From Octopus sinensis (lineage: Eukaryota): DNA of 64,000 nucleotides. The notes beneath the pieces are model-generated. The model saw nothing but the letters and a program-made list of their open reading frames with translations. It was not told the origin of the DNA and ran no database searches. The position numbers were made by a program, and so were the translations under genes. Below, piece by piece: positions 5,769 to 59,444 of this stretch. The stretch is taken from NCBI RefSeq assembly GCF_006345805.1, contig NC_042999.1:44826001-44890000 (forward strand), written 5' to 3'. Numbering within the stretch: the first letter of the stretch is position 1; each line of letters starts with the position of its first letter.

Positions 5769-5839
<71 letters not shown>

Positions 5840-5987
5840 CAGGTGCAGAAGAGCTTGCTTACCAACTACATGGTTCCTGGTTCAGTCCCACTGTGTGGAA
5901 CCTTGGGCAAGTGTTTTCTACCATAGGCTTGGGCCGACCAAAGCCTTGGAGTGGATTTGGTAGACGGAAACTGAAAGAAGCCAGTCA

Positions 5988-7378
5988 TACTGCCAGTGTC
6001 ATTCCTCTGTTCAAAAAGGGCGACCGCACATCACCTGTCAACTATCGCCCAGTCAGTCTCACTAGCTGTATTGCAAAACTGATGGAATCGTGTGTCAGAG
6101 AAACACTCTGGAACTTCTGGAGCTCTCACAGTCTCATCCGACCCTCACAATATGGATTTGTCCCTAACTCCAGCTGCAGTGACCAGCTTGTCGAGTTCCT
6201 TGAGGACATTACTCAGATTACTGACAGTGGCTCATGGGTGGATGTTGTCTACCTTGACTTTGCTAAGGCTTTCAACTCTGTGCCACACAAAAGGCTTATG
6301 GTGAAACTCTCTGCAATGGGTGTGGGGGATGACCTTTTTAACTGGTTGAAATCCTTCATCCTCAGCCGAAAGGAGGTAGTCACAGTTCTAGGACAGCACT
6401 CTACACCATATGAGATGTCATCGGGTGTACCACAGGGATCTGTCCTTGGTCCCCTCTTGTTTGTGGCATACATTAACGACATAGATGCCATTTAAAGAAT
6501 GCCACAGTATTGAAATATGCAGACGACATCAAGCTGTACCTTGAAATCAAAGGAGGACAGATCCTGATGTCTACAACTCTTTCCTGCAATCAGACCTAGA
6601 CACAATGCAGCAATGGATCACAGACTGGCAACTGAAACTGGCTGTGGACAAGTGTACCACCATGCATTTTGGGAGAAAAAACCCTGCGTTCACTTACTCC
6701 CTCCACAACACTGATATCAAGAAATCCTCTTGCAAGCGTGACCTAGGCATCACTGTCAGCAGTGATTTGCGTTGGTCAAAGCATATCTCTAAGATTGTCA
6801 GGAAGGCCGAGGGTGTCTTGGCATCACTCAGCAGGTCTTTTGTTAGCCGCTCTCCAGCCATCTATTTAAAACTGTATACAGCTATGGTACAACCACACTT
6901 GGAATTCGCATCATCAGTTTGGAACCCCTATCTTGCACAGAACATTGACCTCCTGGAATCTGTCCAGAGACGTGCAACCAAACGCATACCCTCCATCAGA
7001 CACCTACCATATTCTGAGCGCCTTGTTTCCCTGGGCATGGATTCACTGAAGCTCCGGCGTTTGGCGACGGACTTGGTAAACACCCACAAAGTTATCAACC
7101 ACCTCACCAACAACAACACTGAACACCTTTTTGATCTCCATGTGTCTAACACACGTGGACATGCCTACAAGTCAGAAAACAATACAGCTCCCATGACTTT
7201 CGGAAACATTTTTTCATGCTCAGAGTTGCTGAAGCATGGAATAAACTGCCTGCGTCAGTTGTTGACTGCCATGACACTGCATCTTTTAAGGCCCTCATGC
7301 TTTCCGAAATCCGCCGAAACTACACCTGATTATATATACACTTTAGATGAGTTGTAGTGCACCTGAGCACTGTACACA

Positions 7379-18486: not shown

Positions 18487-21400
18487 TCATCATCATCATC
18501 GCTTTCCATGCTAGCATGGGTTGGATGGTTCAACTGGGGTCTGGGAAGCCAGAAGGCTGCACCAGGCCCAGTTTGATCTGGCAATGTTTCTACAGCTGGA
18601 TGCCCTTCCTAACGCCAACCACTCCATGAGTGTAGTGGGTGCTTTTTACGTGCCACCGGCACAGGTGCCAGACGAATCTGGCAACGGCCACGAATGGATG
18701 GTGCTTTTTACGTGCCACTGGCCCGAAGCCAATTGGGGCGGCGCTGGCAATGGTCACGAACGGGTGGTGCTTTTTACGTGCCACCTGCACGAGGCCAGTC
18801 GGGGTGACGCTGGCAATGGCCACGTTCGGATGGTTCTTACGTTCCACCGGCACTGGTAACTCAGCTACAATTTCCATTGATCGATTTCGATTCTGATTCT
18901 GATTCTCACTTGCCTCAACAGGTCTTCACAAGTAGAGTTTTGTGTCCCAAGAAGGGAAGGTATGCATAAGTGGGCTGGCTACATCCCATGTAGAAGGCCA
19001 CGGGTTATGGTCTCACTTGTCCTGCCAGGTCTGCTCACGCACAGCATACTTCCAGAGGTCTCGGTCTCTAGTCATTTCCTCAGTGAGACCTAAAGTTTGA
19101 AGGTCGTGCTTCACCACCTCATCCCAGGTTTTCCTGGGTCTGCCTCTTCCACAGGTTCCCTCAACCGCTAGGGTGTGGCACTTTTTCACACAACTATCTT
19201 CATCCATTCTCGCCACATGCCCATACCAGTGCAAACATCTCTCTTGCACACCACATCTGATGCTTCTTAGGTCCAGCTTTTCTCTCAAGGTACTTACACT
19301 CGGAGCATACTGGCTTCATTTCTTGCGAGCTTACGCATATCCTCAGCAGTCACGGCCCATGTTTCACTGCCATGTAGCATGGCTGTTCGTACACACGCGT
19401 CATACAGTCTGCCTTTTACTCTGAGCGAGAGGCCTTTTGTCACCAGCAGAGGTAAGAGCTCTCTGAACTTTGCCCAAGCTATTCTTACTCTAGCAGTTAC
19501 ACTTTCAGCACACCCGCCCCCGCTGCTGACTTGGTCACCTAGGTAACGGAAGCTATCAACTATTTCTAGTTTTTCTCCCTGGAAAGTGACAGAAGTTGGT
19601 CTCAGAGCATTTTCAGTGTTTATTGTTTCTGAGCATCTGCCAAATACAAAAACCAACTTCCTAGTTAGCCTTCCTTTGACATTGCTGCACCTCTTATGTG
19701 TCCATATCTTACACTTGGTGCATCTTATAGAGTTTCTACCTACACCTTTTCTACAGATCGAGCAGGGCCATCTACCTGAAGGCGTTTGTGATTTGTCTAC
19801 CTTCCTACTTATTAGGACTTTGGTTTTAGCCAGATTGACTCTAAGGCCATTCAATTCTAATCCTTGCTTCCACACCTGAAACTTCTCCTCCAGTTCTGAT
19901 AGCGACTCAGCAATTAGAGCAAGGTCATCAGCATAGAGGAACTCCCAGGGGCATCCTGTCTTGAATTCCTCCGTTATTGCCTGGAGGACTATGGTAAATA
20001 GGAGGGGGCTGAGGACTGAGCCTTGGTGGACCCCTACCTCTACCCGAAATTCTTCACTGCACTCGTTGCCAACCCTCACCTTACTAGCAGCGTCTCTGTA
20101 CATGGCTCGCACAGCTCTCACTAACCATTCATCTATTCATAGTTTCCTCATTGACCACCAGATAAGGGATCGGGGGACCCTGTCAAAGGCTTTCTCCATG
20201 TCAACAAAAGCCAGGTACAGGGGCTTATCTTTGGCTAGGTATTTCTCCTGCAGCTGCCTTACCAGGAATATAGCATCAGTGGTACTTTTCCCTGGCACGA
20301 ACCCAAACTGCATCTCATCTAAACTAACTCTCTCTCTAATTAGTTGGGCTATGACCCTCTCCATAACCTTCATCACCTGATCCAACAGCTTGATACCTCT
20401 GTAATTATTTGTATCTAGGGCGTCACCTTTACCTTTGTAGCAGTTGACTATTATGCTGCTACACCAGTCATTGGGTATGACTCCTTCGTGTATCACCTGA
20501 TTAACTATACGGGTGACTAGGCTATAACCAACACTACCAGATATTTTGAGCATCTCTGCAGTGATTCCTGATGGGCCTGGGGCTTTCCCTGTCTTCATGC
20601 TTCTAATTGCCTTAACTACCAAGGAACTGTCAACTTGGTTAGCTGGTCCCTCTGTTGGGTCAACGTTTGGCAGACTCTCTTTATCCCATTCATTTTCTTT
20701 ATTCAGCAACATTTCATAGTGGCATCTCCAAACCTCTCTCTTTGCATCCTCATTTAGCGCAAGTGAACCATCTTCCATGTGAACACACTTCTCTCCTACC
20801 ACATCACAATTCTCTCTCACACACTGTCTTGCAACGCGAAACACCTCCAGTCTTTGGTCCTCACGGTGCAGAACATTGGCAAATTTTTTCTTATCTGCTT
20901 CCCCTCTGGCTAGATAGATCTGTCTCCTAGCTTCCCTTTTGGCAGTCTGATACAATTCCCTGCTACCACCATTCTTCCAGTCCTTCCAAGTCTGTCTCTT
21001 TTCTCTAATAGCCCTGTCTACAACACTGTTCCACCACCACGTTACCTTGGGACGAGAGGGGACTTTGCACCAGCCACAGATCTGGTCAGTGGCTCTCAGC
21101 AGGTTGTCCCTTAGAAACGTCCAGTTGCCTTCTACCCCATGTGATACTCTATCCCCTTCTACTTCGTCAAAGGCTTCAAGTAGCGTGTCCCTAAATCTCT
21201 GTCCATTCGCAGGATCTTTAAGCTTCCAGATCCTTCTTCTCCATGCTGGTCGTCTTCTGGTTGTCCTCCTAGTCCTGATCCTAAAGTCACTAACTACCAG
21301 TCTATGTCGTGGGGTACATTCTTCGCCTGGGAAGGTTTTGGCATTTATAAGCAGCCATCTCTCCCTTTGCCTGGCAAGGATGTAGTCAATTTGGCTGGTA

Positions 21401-22215
21401 TGTTGGCCCGATTGGTAGGTGACTAGGTGGCTGGTAGGTTTCCTGAAGTTAGTGTTGCAAATCATAAGATTATTTGCATCACAGAACTCCAGCAGCTTGG
21501 TCCCCTCCTCGTTGCAGGAACCATAGCCATAGCCTCCATGTACAGCATGGAAGCCCCCAGCATGTCGTCCAACGTGACCATTGAAGTCACCAGCCACAAA
21601 GAGAAGGTCTCTGTCGTTCGTCAACGAGGTAGTCTGCAGTAGAGTGTCATAGAATTGGTCTTTCTGTCCATCGGGTAGCCCCAACTGAGGAGCATAGGCC
21701 GATATAATGGTTGCTAAACTATGATGAAGCACTAATCTAATCTTAAGTATTCTGTCACATACTCTGATTACCTCAATTACTTTATCTACCCATTTCTCAG
21801 CGATAAGTATACCCACGCCACCAACTCTGTCAGTGTTCCCTGCCCAGAAAATCTTGTACCTGTGTTCCTTGCCTGTGAGGAACCTAGCAGATCCTCCTCT
21901 CCACCTTACTTCTTGCATGCAACATATATCCACACATCTCCATTCAAGCATCTCGACTATCTCACCAGACCTACCTTTCAGTGTGCCAACGTTGAGGGTG
22001 CCAACCCTGAGGGTGCCAACCCTGAGGGTGTGGGACAGTGGACAGTAGCTTCATGTACCTGAAAAGAAAGCTCGCATTTGGCAGAATTCATGTGCAAGTA
22101 ATACAGTAGCCTTCAGTTCAACCTGCATAACACTAGCCTTTCATATTTTGCACTGTATGAACATTACCTTACACAGGTCGAGACTAGGGATAGGGATGGT
22201 GAAAGAGCATTTGCA
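18487..22215 (-). mobile_element. Near-full-length RTE-clade LINE, (GAT)n tail, inserted in (TA)n
   Basis: Continuous APE-RT-C-terminal coding plus ~520-nt 3' UTR; the 5' boundary is approximate. Confidence 0.95.
19013..22054 (-). pseudogene. RTE ORF (APE + RT + PHD-like Cys/His finger), broken by frameshifts near 22040, 20125 and 19290
   Basis: TLNVGTL, QEVRWRG, SAYAPQ, GDFNGHVG, QIDYIL, KAPGPSG, NYRGIKLL, FVDMEKAFDRVP, GVHQGSVLSPLLF, YADDL, GRGRPRKTW. Confidence 0.95.
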
Positions 22216-33514: not shown

Positions 33515-33973
33515 ACATATATATGTACATATATATGAGTGTGTGTGTGTATATATATATATCAGCTCTCCCTTGAAATGCATTGAATATATTTTTTCAA
33601 GCACTTTGGCTCTTTGACTAAAGATGTCTGTATTAAACATACATAAACACACATACAACATATATACAGTTAAAAAGTTGTTTTTTATAATTATTAAATA
33701 TAAAACTATTAAAGCTATGAGCATTAACTGGAAAAAAGGACTTCCTAAAAATGTAGTGTAAGATGTTATTAATAATTTTACTGCCAGTAAGTTGTCAATA
33801 AAATTATTAATAATAGCCACTATTAATAGCATTATATATGTATATATATATATATAATGAAGGGTGAAATTAATTAATTTGGAATAATTATCAAAGCTCG
33901 CTCTGATACTGAGTTGAGTTAGTGCCTTCTAGTATCTCAAAATTCAATATATAATCATTTATGATTATAGTAT

Positions 33974-34073
33974 TCTACGCTGAAGAGAAAAGAAGTTTTG
34001 GTAAGGTAGAATTATTTAATATTTAATTCTTATGCTTTCCTAAAAACTTGATTTCGAAACGTGCGTCCGTAGA
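33974..34073 (+). ncRNA. Type-I hammerhead ribozyme motif, intact core, 69-nt stem II region, in a (TA)n-flanked cassette (~33857-34260)
   Basis: tctacg-CTGAAGA-gaaa...tttc-GAAA-cgtgcg-TC-cgtaga; predicted cleavage after C34067. Confidence 0.9.
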
Positions 34074-34582
34074 TAACTTAAAATTGTATGATAGATTGCC
34101 GTCAATTCATTCTCTCTTACCTGTTTGTGTCTGCCTTTCAATTGTTGTTTTTACTGAGATCTCCCTTTTTAGTAGAAGAAATAGCTATAACTCTTTGACT
34201 GCTATTTCTAAATTCGGTATGTGGCAAGGCAATTCGTTGCTAAACCCTTTATTGCTTAGTATATATATATATATATAAACATTACTGATGTCATAGTGAA
34301 TGTATTTGTTTTGTTCATGTGCTTATGAGCTGCAGGATAGTGCTAGGAGAAATGTCCCTTTAAGACTTTGGGTGTTAAAAAATACTGAATACCCCAAACG
34401 AAGGAGAATGATGGATGGAATGAGCAAGTTTTAAAAGTTTTTTTGATACATCAATTTACAATTGTTTCATCTAAATTTTATCTCATGAACACCAGGTTTT
34501 ATATTCAAATTACATATGTGTATATGTATGTATATATATATATTACAAACACACACACATATATATGTATGTATATATAGGT

Positions 34583-51438: not shown

Positions 51439-51779
51439 TTAAATAATTATTACTTTGAAGGTTTTAATTCCCATGCTGGCCACCTGATAAGATCGGTATT
51501 TAAATATCAATCTTATCCTTAAGTATATAAATAAATATATATATATATATTGGTGGCATGTAAAAAGCACTATGTGATCATCACCACGTCACCTTACTGG
51601 CACTTGTGCCAGTGGCATGTGAAAAAATATTCGAGTGAGGTCGTAGCCAGTGCTGCTGGACTGGCTCTTGTGCAGGTGGTACATGAAAAACACCATTTGA
51701 GTGTGGCTGTTGCCAGTACTGCCTGACTGGCCTTCATGCCACAGTCTTTGGCCTGCTGATGTTTCTGTCTCTTTGGCCT

Positions 51780-52530
51780 CACACCTTGCTTCACAAATCC
51801 TGTCTTGCACAAGCTCAGTTCAGGCACTTGACCCTCTCTTGCAGCTGAAGCAACAACCTTTAGCACTAAATTATGTCTAAATGTATACCATCCAGACTGG
51901 AGTGCATTTGGGCAAGCTGACAGCATGTGTTTGAGGCTGCCATACTTCCCGTACAAGTGGCACTGTGGACTCTCTTGGATACCCCATTTTTTGAGATTTG
52001 CTGGAGACGTATGCACATCATATGCAGTCTGGATCAGAGCTTTCAAATGCCCTGCACTGAAACACCACCAATCAGACCGCTTCAACTCAAGCTTTTTGAC
52101 ACCATCCCAATTCAGCCACCAACCCTGCTCTGCTAGTTGCACTGCATGACCCAGATGCCTCTCATCTTCCAGCTGCCTTACTTGTTGTTCATGTAGCTTC
52201 TGCTGTTCTTGTTTACTTGACTCAGACCAATACTGCTCTCTCTTGACAAGCCCCACACCAGCCCTGCCATCTATCATCACTCCACATGCTCCAGCATCCT
52301 GAGCCATCTCATCAAGCTTTTGCATCACCTCAGTGACCTTCCATTTCCTACCAGTGTTCAAATCTGGTGGATTGTCCTGGACCACAGTGTCTCTCAACTC
52401 AGACAGCATCGATTGTTGCAGACGCACCTTGGAGACCTTGTACTCCTCCACTAGTGACATCAAGGGCAACTGGAGCATACCCCGGTTGCCAAAAAGGGTG
52501 ACAGATGAAAGGCACTTCGAAAGATGAAAG
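51780..52530 (-). mobile_element. HERO-clade (R2-like, RLE) retrotransposon fragment, post-RT region through the zinc knuckle
   Basis: LQLP.MSLVEEYKVSK, TGRKWK, GRAGVG, QGWWLNW, AYDV..SPANL..WG, CHLY..YGSLKHMLSAC, YTFRHNLVL in ORF 51594-52697. Confidence 0.85.
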
Positions 52531-53525
52531 CAGAAATTCCATTTGGTTTCAATTCCAATTGAAACACCATTTACACTGGTGTACCCAGTGCAAGCTATGG
52601 ACACACAAGAGGTGCAGCGGACTAGCTGGAAGGTTAACAGAGAAAGTATTGTTTGTATGTGGAAGATGCATAGAAGCCATAAAGACCATAGATACATGGG
52701 AAACTGATTTCCTCAAATGTCCCAGAGGTTCTCTGGAAGTAGTAGATAATTTCTGCTATCTAAGTGACCTAATTAGCAGTGAAGGAGGATATACTGAAAG
52801 TGTAATTGCTAGAATAAGATGGAGAAAGTTCAGAGAGCTTTTTTCTCTGTTGGCAACCAAAGGTTTTTCTATCTAAGTGTTAAGACGAGTGTATGAAGCA
52901 TGTGTTTGAACTGCAATATTATATGGTAGAGAGACATGGGCTCAGAATGCAGAGGACATGTGAAGACGAGAGAGGAACGAATTTGGTATGCTAGACTGTG
53001 ACAGAGTATCTAGGCATAAGAGGAATGATGTGCAGTATGCAAGAGAGAAGGCTGTGATGGTTTGGTCATGTGATGCAGACAGATGAAGATAGTTGCATAA
53101 AGGAATGCTGATCACTTGAAATGGATGGAAGTTGTGGAAGAGGGAAATCCAGGAAGTCATTTGATGAAGTAGTATTGAAAGCTGACCTCAAAATGCTGAG
53201 CCCTATGAAGGAGATGACAAAGGATTGAGATATATGGTGCTTATGCTGCATTCAAGAAGGCCCATTCACCACAACAATATTGATGTCCTGATACCACAGT
53301 GCCACATGAAAAGAACTCATGTTGGTGGAACATAAAAAGCATTGGTGCTGGTGCCATCTAAAAAACATCCAGTACACTCTATGAAGTAGTCGGAGTTTGG
53401 AAGGGCAACCAGACGTCGAAACTATGCCAAAACACAGTCAGGCCTGTTGCCAGCACCTGTGAAGCCATCCAACCCATGCTAGCATAAAAAATGGACGCTA
53501 AAGGATGATAATGAAGATAATGATA
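52530..53525 (+). mobile_element. Older decayed RTE 3' portion
   Basis: CTQCKLWTHKRCSG...FVCGRC, VDNFCYLSD, WRKFREL; 3' UTR and (gat)n-like tail. Confidence 0.85.
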
Positions 53526-53575: not shown

Positions 53576-54855
53576 CGAGGGACGTTCAATAAGTAATGCT
53601 TCTGATCCACTTGCAGTTGGTTGATCTAGCTGAAATTTTGCTTGTGCAATTATTTATATCTCTATAGATTAAGTGGCAAATTACAGCTCTGAACTAATTG
53701 TAGTCTCTGATTTACAGGTGTTTGAACAGAGTCAAGTGTGAAATGGAGCCAGTTGAGTGTCGAGCAGTGATCCGGTTTTTGTATTTGAAAGGACGCACAC
53801 CACGGGAGACTTTTGATGAAATGAAAGTAACTTATGGTGATGATGCCCCATTCATATGACCTTGTAAAACGCTGGCATCGTGAATTTAAACATGGTCGGA
53901 ACTCTGTGGAAACAGCTCCCAGATCTGGTTGCCCCCTTCTGCCAATGATGAGGCATCTGTCATCAAGTTGAGGCTGCCATTTTGGAAGATCGACGCATAA
54001 CTATTTGCCAAATAGCCCATGAGGTCAAGATTAGTACCGGGTCTGTGGAAACTATCATTCATGACTATTTGCATATGCAAAAGGTGTCTGCCAGATGGAT
54101 TCCCAGGTTGCTCACACCTTTCCAGAAGCAAAAACGCGTCGAGTGCTCGAGGATGAATTTGGAGATGTGCCAAGAAGATGAGTCAAAATTTTTCAAAAGA
54201 CTGATTACACAGGATGAAACCTGGGTCCATCACTATGATTCAGAGACCAAAGCCCAGTCAATGCAGTGGAAGCACCATGACTCACCGCCTCCAAAGAAGG
54301 CAAGGGTGCAGCCCTCCGCTGGCAAGGTCATGCTCACAGTCTTCTGGGACCAGGACGGAGTAGTGTTGACAGATTTCCTGGCAAAGGGTACCACAATTAC
54401 AGGAGCCTATTATGCTTCACTTTTGAAGAAATTAAGAGAAGCTATCAAAATCAAGAGGCGGGGCAAGATCAGCAAAGGTATCCTCCTCCTGCAGGACAAC
54501 GCTCTGGCGTGTCGCCAGATCAGATGCACAGACGTGCGGCTATGAACTCCTCCCCCATCCACCCTACTCTCCTGACCTTGCACCCTCTGATTTTCACCTC
54601 TTCCCAGCCATGAAGTTGTTTTTGAAAGGAAAGCGTTTCCCAGATGATGTAGCCTTGATTTCTGAAGTCACGTCATGGTTGGAGGACCAGACTGGGGTAT
54701 TCTACAAAAACGGTCTCCAGAGCTGCATCAAACGATGGAAGAAATGCGTAACTCTGGGTGGTTCCTATGTAGAAAAAGACTAATAACTGTGCCAAGTTTT
54801 GTTGCTCTACTGCTATGGGAAGTGGGTCAGGGGCATTACTTATTGAACGCTCCTC

Positions 54856-57376: not shown

Positions 57377-57747
57377 ATGTATGCATGTAGAGAAGTAGAT
57401 AATCTCAAGCTTCAAGGATTATCTAAAGTTGACATGCCATTAAAGAAAGGGATAGGATTATTGTATAGAGATAAGAAGTCAATTGCGGATACATGTTTCT
57501 GTCTCAACAGCTGTCATCAATATATCAATAGTCTGACTTTACCTCAGGTAGCCAAGGGACTTGGAACTTACACAAGAAAGAGTAGAATGCATATATAGTG
57601 TAGGTAATTTACATCTATCTATCTGCCAGTCTGTCTGACTGTCTATCTCTCTATCTGTATACACACACACACACACACACATACACACACACACACATAA
57701 ATAAATAAATAAATGGAGTTTAATGCAGGTGTAATTCAAATTCCTTT

Positions 57748-57836
57748 ACTTCCAACACATGCTTCGAAGATATCACTGATATTATTCCAAAGAAATAAAA
57801 TAGTGTAAAACAATGTAATCTTCTCTTCATGAAAGT
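57748..57836 (-). ncRNA. Decayed hammerhead downstream of the PLE GIY-YIG coding end
   Basis: Minus strand: actttc-ATGAAGA-gaagat...atcttc-GAAG-catgtg-TT-ggaagt; stems preserved, two core substitutions. Confidence 0.65.
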
Positions 57837-58064
57837 GAAGTAATGAAACTCGTCAATAAGACATTTTAACAGAAAATGATGGATATGTATAGTGATTAAC
57901 TGAATGCTATTAATATTGTTTGAAAAAACGTTATATGATATAACGTCAGAAGTAGCCCATAGAAAGAGGAGGGATAAATTAAAGAAAAATTAAATAAATG
58001 AGAAGTATATGACTATATGTATATTAAATAAAACCTTATAAACTAGGAAAATATATATTTAGTG

Positions 58065-58067
<3 letters not shown>

Positions 58068-58098
<31 letters not shown>

Positions 58099-58194
58099 GT
58101 TTAACGTCCGTTCTCCATGCTAGCATGGGTTGGACGGTTCAACCGGGGATCTGGGAAGCCAGAAGGCTGCACCAGGATCCAGTCTTATCTGGCA
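58068..58194 (-). mobile_element. Short RTE 3'-end insertion in the left PLE arm
   Basis: Absent from the right arm; (cat)n plus RTE tail. Confidence 0.9.
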
Positions 58195-58669
58195 GTGAAA
58201 TATAAAAGAAAATTAATGTTTAAATTATATATAATGATAGAGATCGCTTATATGAACTAAAGGTGTGGCTTTGCCAATGTTTACATCGGTATGCACGCTC
58301 TATAACCGTGTTTACTAGGGGATTTTTTAGAAAGAATAATGAAAAATAGTTCAGAATTACAGAGAAGACAGAATTTCTTGCCTTTGTCATAAGGTATTGA
58401 GATTGAGAGGATCAACCAATCTAAATTAAACTGTTTATTGTGGTCTTTTAGATCCCAAATTAATTTACTGAGCCCTGTATTGTTACGTTTATTCCTATCC
58501 CTAAATGTCAAGTAATGATTAGAAATCCTTCTAGATAATTGTAAAGACGTGCTAAGTTATCTGGTAATGATTGATTGATTGATTGATTCTAGTTTCAGCT
58601 TATGAGCTGTGGCCATGCTGGGGCACCGGTTGACATTTTCTATGATAATGCCGAATTTTATAACTCTGC

Positions 58670-59093
58670 CTTACTTAAAGCATGTTATACAGAGAAAATT
58701 ATCTGCATTGATTCTACCTGGTCTTATTATTCTCATAATCAAGTATAATTTTATATTGGAAGCACGTCTTTACAATTATTTAGAAGGATTTCTAATCATT
58801 ACTCAACATTTAGGGATAGGAATAAACGTAACAGTACAGGGCTCAGTAAATGAATTTGGTATCTAAAAGACCACAATAAACAGTTTAATTTAGATTGGTT
58901 GATTCTCTCAATCTTGATACATTATAACAAAGGGAAGGAATTCTGTCTTTTCTGTAATTCTGAACTATTTTTCATTATCTTTTCTAAAAATCCCCTAGTA
59001 AACACGGTTATAGAGCGTGCATACCGATGTAAACATTGGCAAAACCACACCTTTAGTTCATATAAGCGATCTCTATCATTATATATAATTTAA
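58670..59093 (+). pseudogene. GIY-YIG endonuclease C-terminus of a Penelope-like element
   Basis: FYIGSTS..RRISNHYSTFRDRNKRNSTGLSK*IWYLKD..FNLDWLIL..FCLFCNSE..YRCKH. Confidence 0.85.
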
Positions 59094-59444
59094 ACATTAA
59101 TTTTCTTTTTATATTTCACATTCACTAAATATATATTTTCCTAGTATATAAGGTTTTATTTAATATACATATAGTCATATACTTCTCATTTATTTAGTTT
59201 TTCTTTAATTTATCCCTCCTCTTTCTATGGGCTACTTCTGACGTTATATCATATAACGTTTTTTCAAACAATATTAATAGCATTTGGTTAATCACTATAC
59301 ATATCCATCATTATATACACTATAGTATAAAGATACTTTTGTCTAAACTTACTTTTGGCTTATAACTATTTTGTCTATAGAATCTCACAAAAAAATGTTA
59401 AAGATCTAAATAACTATACTCTAATAATCCTTTTTGTCTTTAGA

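Follow-up and report, generated by a model that had tools for sequence, protein, structure and literature searches.

The 64-kb window analysed here (the whole stretch of octopus DNA, 64,000 nt) was found to contain, at positions 57697-59312, a dead, 5′-truncated, head-to-head insertion of a Penelope-like element (PLE) with a C-terminal endonuclease. The element belongs to a lineage with a most likely origin in the Hydra clade, and the left arm of the insertion carries the pseudo-LTR (pLTR) hammerhead of the family, in which two changes of the core would abolish cutting. A probability of roughly 0.93 was assigned to this reading, and the locus as such is an ordinary dead PLE stump. For the family that it represents, the balance tips slightly towards a broader proposal, in which an octopus lineage of Hydra-clade descent that was active recently would have swapped its four-cysteine linker for a Cys-free motif and would still target (TA)n, so that the linker would not be what aims PLEs at TA, and in which the youngest copies would have spread with a weakened U4C long-stem hammerhead.

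Layout of the two-armed insertion

The earlier note had read the left arm, on the minus strand, as the end of a GIY-YIG-type endonuclease followed by a 3′ UTR and a decayed hammerhead, and the whole as a 5′-truncated inverted duplication of one element. Both readings were borne out when the head-to-head arms were aligned: the inner block (58195-58553 against 58761-59119) was identical at 341/360 positions and the outer block (57875-58067 against 59120-59312) at 189/193, and the left arm extended to about 57697, beyond the edge of 57748 noted earlier.

The left arm, on the minus strand, begins with the C-terminal part of the endonuclease (58220-58553), which was recognised by tblastn to the whole ORF of locus L064 (E 3e-47), includes the R, H, CxxC, E, N and CxH residues, is 5′-truncated just after YIG and presents one frameshift near 58328. 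It is followed by the 3′ UTR (57836-58219), which is split by a 127-nt fragment (58068-58194, plus strand) of an abundant (CAT)n-headed repeat with 14 further matches in the window, presumably SINE-like; since this fragment is present in the left arm only, its insertion is younger than the duplication. Next comes the type I hammerhead (57749-57835), found in this arm only and parsed into core and stems, and then the 3′ tail (57697-57753), which stops about 50 nt past the cleavage site, at the first of two fixed ends of the family, and adjoins (GT)n. The spacing of about 400 nt previously given between endonuclease and hammerhead agreed with the 416 nt measured, but 127 nt of those correspond to the later insertion, leaving 289 nt for the element.

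The right arm, on the plus strand, opens with an RT-thumb fragment (58552-58728, in pieces 58552-58574 and 58629-58728), inside which lies a fragment of about 54 nt (58575-58628, plus strand) of a second dispersed repeat with 5 further matches in the window. At the inversion point the arm starts overlap by 2 nt. The thumb fragment is joined across a deletion of about 540 nt to the endonuclease part (58726-59093), which has YIG at 58752-58760 and two in-frame stops. This deletion was absent from every other locus compared (L001-L118), and a subfamily sharing it is therefore unsupported. The right-arm 3′ UTR (59094-59312) ends at the CATT/ATATAC junction; because it stops 39 nt before the hammerhead, only one arm has the motif.

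It is highly improbable that the inverted repeat arose after insertion, through a local fold-back duplication of a single truncated copy, or that it is an assembly artefact. Such an origin would suit the arm starts lying within 2 nt of each other and the arms being 95-98% identical, closer than most sister copies (88-95%). However, the arms differ at 23/553 columns, hold different later insertions and reach different 3′ ends, and the thumb fragment of the right arm has no counterpart in the left. Moreover, at least 9 loci of the family have arms facing opposite ways, a layout described for PLEs in PMC8557442 (legend of Fig. 2). The insertion of one element as two opposed arms is thus the preferred reading.

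Protein domains and placement of the lineage

That the peptide comes from a PLE GIY-YIG endonuclease, as had been proposed, was corroborated by the conserved endonuclease residues, the Atlas neighbours and a telomerase-like RT in one and the same ORF. In a 106-row protein alignment (10 genome loci plus 96 of the 120 listed homologues, the omitted ones being mostly short or partial), residues Y658, Y671-G673, R682, H686, E741 and N754 were conserved in 105-106 of the 106 rows. The Atlas neighbours were named GIY-YIG at 0.95, and PF01541 was found on 11% of one cluster. The structure model obtained from the same alignment reached a pLDDT of 88, the single-sequence fold reaching only 34, and its top PDB fold matches were telomerase RTs (Foldseek E 6e-9), in line with what a PLE should give. 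A VIA fold match to telomerase RT (Z 17.0, rmsd 5.4, 325 aligned) was closely followed by a DGR RT (Z 16.2), in a fold search that covers residues 56-486, and both PDB fold searches were dominated by the RT domain.

The viral fold library returned generic polymerases only, and a PDB sequence search with profile A2 gave 0 matches. Pfam yielded no GIY-YIG or RT match on L005, L015, the window peptide, L064, L119 and P0003, a sub-threshold RVT_1 on P0001 being the sole relevant match in the tested set. A telomerase-related RT and a GIY-YIG-type endonuclease were found in a single 775-aa ORF (L063 and L064). Judged from sequence and modelling, the PLE identity and the physical link between endonuclease, UTR and hammerhead are supported. 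Regarding the other PLE groups, a Naiad/Chlamys identity was ruled out by the endonuclease being C-terminal to the RT rather than N-terminal, and Penelope/Poseidon, Neptune and Nematis by the absence of a CCHH motif with two Cys between GIY and YIG.

The motifs of the Hydra clade were defined by Craig et al. 2021 (PMC8557442). In the octopus lineage, DKG is replaced by DKT (QSDKT in L063 and L064), CCHH is absent, the 9-residue gap between IY and YIG lacks CxxC, and CxxC plus CxH are present around E and N (C735, C738, C763, H765). The N-terminal motif is IRWL in the linker-less lineage (RWK in Hydra) and IRWK or IRWR in sister families. The CxCX5C linker that precedes the endonuclease is absent in the window's lineage, and a conserved Cys-free motif occupies its place. 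Each of the four linker columns holds C in 99/106 rows, the 7 exceptions all belonging to the linker-less lineage, and CxC-x4-7-C was observed in 109/111 homologues with an endonuclease end, with two spacing variants. In a quick IQ-TREE analysis of the RT core, comprising unnamed homologues and genome loci and no published Hydra sequence, the 10 linker-less rows formed one branch (SH-aLRT 100) among linker-bearing families of the same genome. Its motifs make descent from the Hydra clade most likely for the lineage, which was filed as a variant rather than a plain member because the linker cysteines are missing.

The hammerhead of the window copy and of its family

The hammerhead of the window (57835-57749, minus strand) is composed, in this order, of a 5-bp stem I (57835-57831 paired with 57753-57749), the core ATGAAGA (57830-57824), a 58-nt stem II region (57823-57766), GAAG (57765-57762), a 2-bp stem III and GTT (GUU at 57756-57754). 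Sister copies read CTGAAGA and GAAA, against ATGAAGA and GAAG in the window, so that a type I core with stems I-III is present in the family and not in the window copy, which bears C3A and A15.1G. Changes at C3 and at A15.1 abolish hammerhead activity. For position 3, loss of activity was shown with another change, C3G, in PMC11167929.

Taken on its own, the window motif is weak and has no above-chance status. Rfam at gathering score gave 0 matches in the 64-kb window, a scan allowing two mismatches gave 14 rows in the window, many of them low-complexity, and the fold z-score was -0.73; three intact hammerheads of the family folded at z -1.7 to -2.6. The motif was accepted as a hammerhead because sister loci keep the core at an equal offset. 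It had been suggested that relatives be checked for an intact hammerhead at this offset, and the core was found 291-295 nt past the last conserved codons in 15/19 sister loci (416 nt in the window, or 289 nt without the insertion). Among the 19 best sister loci, CUGANGA was kept in 16 and the whole core pattern was matched in 10, and the whole copies of the element have it too.

In 19 hammerheads of this linker-less lineage, 7/12 stem II pairs had changed on both sides, and 90.5% of stem II cells were paired, compared with 83.0% for shuffled and 30-53% for slid controls; these are related sequences, from which the tested structure was itself drawn, and two of the five covariation measures (counts of pairs or types) were no better than shuffles (177/500 and 344/500). 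RNAalifold, unaided, recovered 11 of the 12 stem II pairs. Stem II is built of 12 bp plus an apical hairpin, and stem III of 2 bp with a self-complementary loop, from which the intact family hammerhead would likely cut weakly or as a dimer. The stem II region measures 54-58 nt in the linker-less lineage, 59-100 nt in several sister families and 19 nt in one. Stem II regions of 54-100 nt are thus common in this PLE radiation and are missed by Rfam, and core searches with spacers of 7-17 nt would overlook them.

In nine loci of the young subfamily, both whole ORFs among them, the core reads CCGA for CUGA (U4C), and six of these nine match L064 at 98-100% of positions in the 3′ region, where CUGA copies reach at most 94.7%. 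U4C is already known from nature; although less active in vitro, it suffices to sustain a viroid (PMC3088659). In PAc, a Poseidon element of Anolis, hammerhead mutants did not affect insertion in vitro (PMC11167929). Since U4C is viable elsewhere and cleavage is dispensable for PAc insertion in vitro, the presence of U4C in young copies fits current knowledge.

These data also bear on whether the motif is a chance match, or a structure kept for a role other than that of a ribozyme, such as protein binding or the start of reverse transcription. The absence of Rfam matches in the window, the z-score of the window copy, the U4C change common to the youngest copies and the dispensability of cleavage for the insertion of PAc all agree with such an explanation. 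It is nonetheless regarded as unlikely: core positions do not vary, or scarcely do, between families with only about 58-65% protein identity, and the stems covary, which excludes chance, and the position of the motif is the same as in the Hydra hammerheads of File S2 of PMC8557442. The decayed ribozyme of a PLE remains the favoured interpretation of the motif.

The family in the genome

A nucleotide search of the 2.72-Gb genome returned at least 2267 candidate copies of the family, of which the best 40 were 88-95% identical, the window itself apart. A protein search returned at least 3431 candidates, and the best 150, which were scored, provided the whole ORFs. The autonomous copies whose recovery had been proposed were thereby obtained as 775-aa ORFs at L063 and L064, which share 99.8% identity along 2988 nt. 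Identity between L064 and the window arms is 82-86%. L064 is arranged as inverted arm, pLTR, ORF and pLTR, and the sequence past its hammerhead serves the next unit as 5′ UTR. The combination of pLTRs from partial tandems, an inverted 5′-truncated copy and a tail at one end was observed in L064, L066, L067 and L071. Among named homologues, the two closest to the family protein come from Octopus species.

No spliced joint in the 5′ UTR was found among the contigs of four runs, which, being assembled, cannot demonstrate its absence. The contigs of three runs, guessed to be RNA, span most of the element with no such joint and are silent on expression. In one of the runs guessed to be RNA (X3, contigs), the summed depth over the hammerhead of L064 (5220-5329) was 12,117, against 0-72 in other bins, which could come from a short RNA present in abundance or from a fragment with many copies. 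At L063:5678 (minus strand), the 5′ end of this whole copy was noticed inside the hammerhead core, right after (TA)n and 72 nt before the cut site instead of at it.

Other loci presented features of their own. At L062 (G000:C20:16425255-16427816), an otherwise whole ORF without its first codons is in frame with an upstream sequence resembling a host protein domain, an open frame that may be due to chance or to exon fusion. Sister families (L068-L073, L119-L138) have ORFs of 860-960 aa, several of which look whole, and their lengthening corresponds to N/S-rich insertions that flank the pre-endonuclease domain on both sides. Two fragments of this PLE radiation, P0002 and P0011, are publicly labelled 'GATA zinc finger domain-containing protein 4-like' and 'myb-like protein I', which are misannotations.

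3′ ends, TA neighbours and a possible route of insertion

In 52 non-duplicate loci, the 3′ ends clustered at about +45-52 and +197-204 nt past the cut site. (TA)5 occurred within 30 nt of 25/36 anchored 3′ ends of the linker-less lineage (16/23 and 9/13 by end site), against a background of 474/9139 windows of the 64-kb window (about 5%) and 1649/34191 in the loci; the anchor missed several young copies that do show (TA)n. The left end of the window copy adjoins (GT)n and not (TA)n. It could also be that TA runs grew from an AT-rich end after insertion. Of nine loci with opposite-facing arms, read by eye, each fixed end is occupied by one arm in five (L023, L030, L034, L045 and L064), and in the other four, the window included, one arm ends 95-152 nt before the cut site.

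PMC11167929 and PMC8557442 suggest a possible route of insertion. The element's own protein would bind a tandem transcript (3′ UTR, hammerhead, 5′ UTR and ORF), its endonuclease would nick AT-rich DNA, and reverse transcription would begin within the RNA, at two sites. Priming off both target strands would give two cDNAs that stop early and are joined head to head. In the window, one arm probably began at the +50 site, and -121 was probably the start of the other; the gap between thumb and endonuclease in the right arm would stem from a template jump or a later deletion, and the two short repeats would have been inserted after the arms had formed. By analogy with PAc, hammerhead cutting is likely dispensable for insertion.

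Other hammerhead cassettes of the window

The earlier note had also tied the ribozyme cassettes found elsewhere in the window to PLEs. This link held for the cassette at 1693-2472 on evidence of its own, and for those at 33895-34260 and 1-472 by architecture only, and no sequence was shared between the hammerhead at 57749-57835 and the other cassettes of the window. The region 1693-2472 contains a head-to-head pair of decayed hammerheads with an 84-nt stem II, its right arm being about 130 nt longer than the left and both ends lying at (TA)n. This cassette was followed by an ORF in 2/14 other loci, and in L132 a cassette of this type, RT, Cys linker and endonuclease succeed one another in that order. 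It is the pLTR of a second, Cys-linker-bearing Hydra-like family.

An intact type I hammerhead (33974-34073) with a 69-nt stem II was found within 33854-34260 (plus strand). The repeat at 33895-34260 is young, with at least 1190 candidates, 98-99% identity, a tandem spacing of about 590 nt and inverted arms. No PLE ORF was present within 1.5 kb of this cassette in 15/15 loci, and a search for its autonomous partner among 34 PLE loci gave microsatellite matches only. By analogy, the repeat at 33854-34260 is best described as retrozyme-like and seemingly non-coding. The palindrome at 1-472, which extends past the start of the window, contains a short-stem hammerhead and belongs to a repeat with at least 3056 candidates, the core being CCGAUGA in both copies that passed the filter; again, no PLE ORF was seen within 1.5 kb in 15/15 loci.

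That the present element mobilises all the hammerhead cassettes of the window was judged very unlikely. Their hammerheads are all of type I and either long or PLE-like, and all have inverted arms, as such mobilisation would lead one to expect. However, the other cassettes share no sequence with the present hammerhead, the 1693 cassette comes from a different, Cys-linker family, and comparison of the 33895 cassette with the 34 PLE loci gave nothing beyond microsatellite.

Elsewhere in the window, ORFs of transposon remnants were noticed at 19294-22050 (minus strand), 5836-7357 (plus), 51594-52712 (minus) and 53952-54783 (plus), which, by their motifs, we take to be endonuclease/RT frames of LINE type and part of a mariner-like transposase.

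Comparison with known systems

The association of PLEs with hammerheads was already published in 2014 (Cervera and de la Pena, PMC4209133). The metazoan PLE hammerheads described there share with those of the octopus family the type I fold, a short palindromic stem III fit for dimers and G10.1-C11.1, and they occur mostly in truncated single copies, with some opposite-strand pairs; their stem II has 7-8 bp, whereas that of the family has 12 bp plus an apical hairpin.

Among the closest systems is the Hydra clade, which includes Hydra-1_Obim (PMC8557442). Common features are a single ORF below 3 kb with RT followed by GIY-YIG, DKT, RW, no CCHH, CxxC and CxH flanking E and N, a type I hammerhead in the pLTR and (TA)n neighbours, as well as an inverted 5′-truncated copy, which Penelope-13_HM has too. 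Unlike the clade, the octopus family has a Cys-free motif for the four linker cysteines and RWL for RWK, and its stem II region of 54-58 nt differs from the 10-24 nt of the 26 Hydra rows in File S2. A precedent for a long stem II is provided there by PLE-X1_sMoe, a spike-moss element (52 nt). Identity with Hydra-1_Obim, the one octopus family listed in that paper, was ruled out by its N-terminal sequence (compared by eye with partial text) and its 22-nt stem II region.

PAc (Frangieh et al. 2024, PMC11167929) resembles the family in its AT-rich targets and in having 3′ ends fixed at two sites past the hammerhead, and its mechanism involves an internal RT start, with cleavage dispensable for insertion in vitro. 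Nevertheless, PAc belongs to another clade and its starts are adjacent and inside the ORF, whereas in the family they lie in the 5′ UTR with some 150 nt between them. Metazoan non-LTR retrozymes, as described in bioRxiv 10.64898/2026.07.22.740005, have a type I hammerhead and a proposed PLE origin and fit the 33895 cassette; the window stump differs from them in having coding remnants and no tandem non-coding unit.

Craig et al. tied the Cys linker to (TA)n targeting as a hypothesis, Chlamys being without linker (PMC8557442). The octopus family bears on two points left open there, the role of the linker in (TA)n targeting and the need for hammerhead cleavage. If the broader proposal is true, the genome offers natural family pairs with and without linker and with and without canonical core, and the role of the linker is testable by direct comparison because linker-less whole ORFs sit beside linker-bearing sister families. 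Neither a linker-less, TA-adjoining PLE lineage nor U4C in youngest copies was found in the literature searched, which comprised open papers. The insertion layout, the PLE-hammerhead link and octopus Hydra elements are already published, and, set against these systems, the lineage without linker cysteines and with TA neighbours is genuine as a variant, though a modest one.
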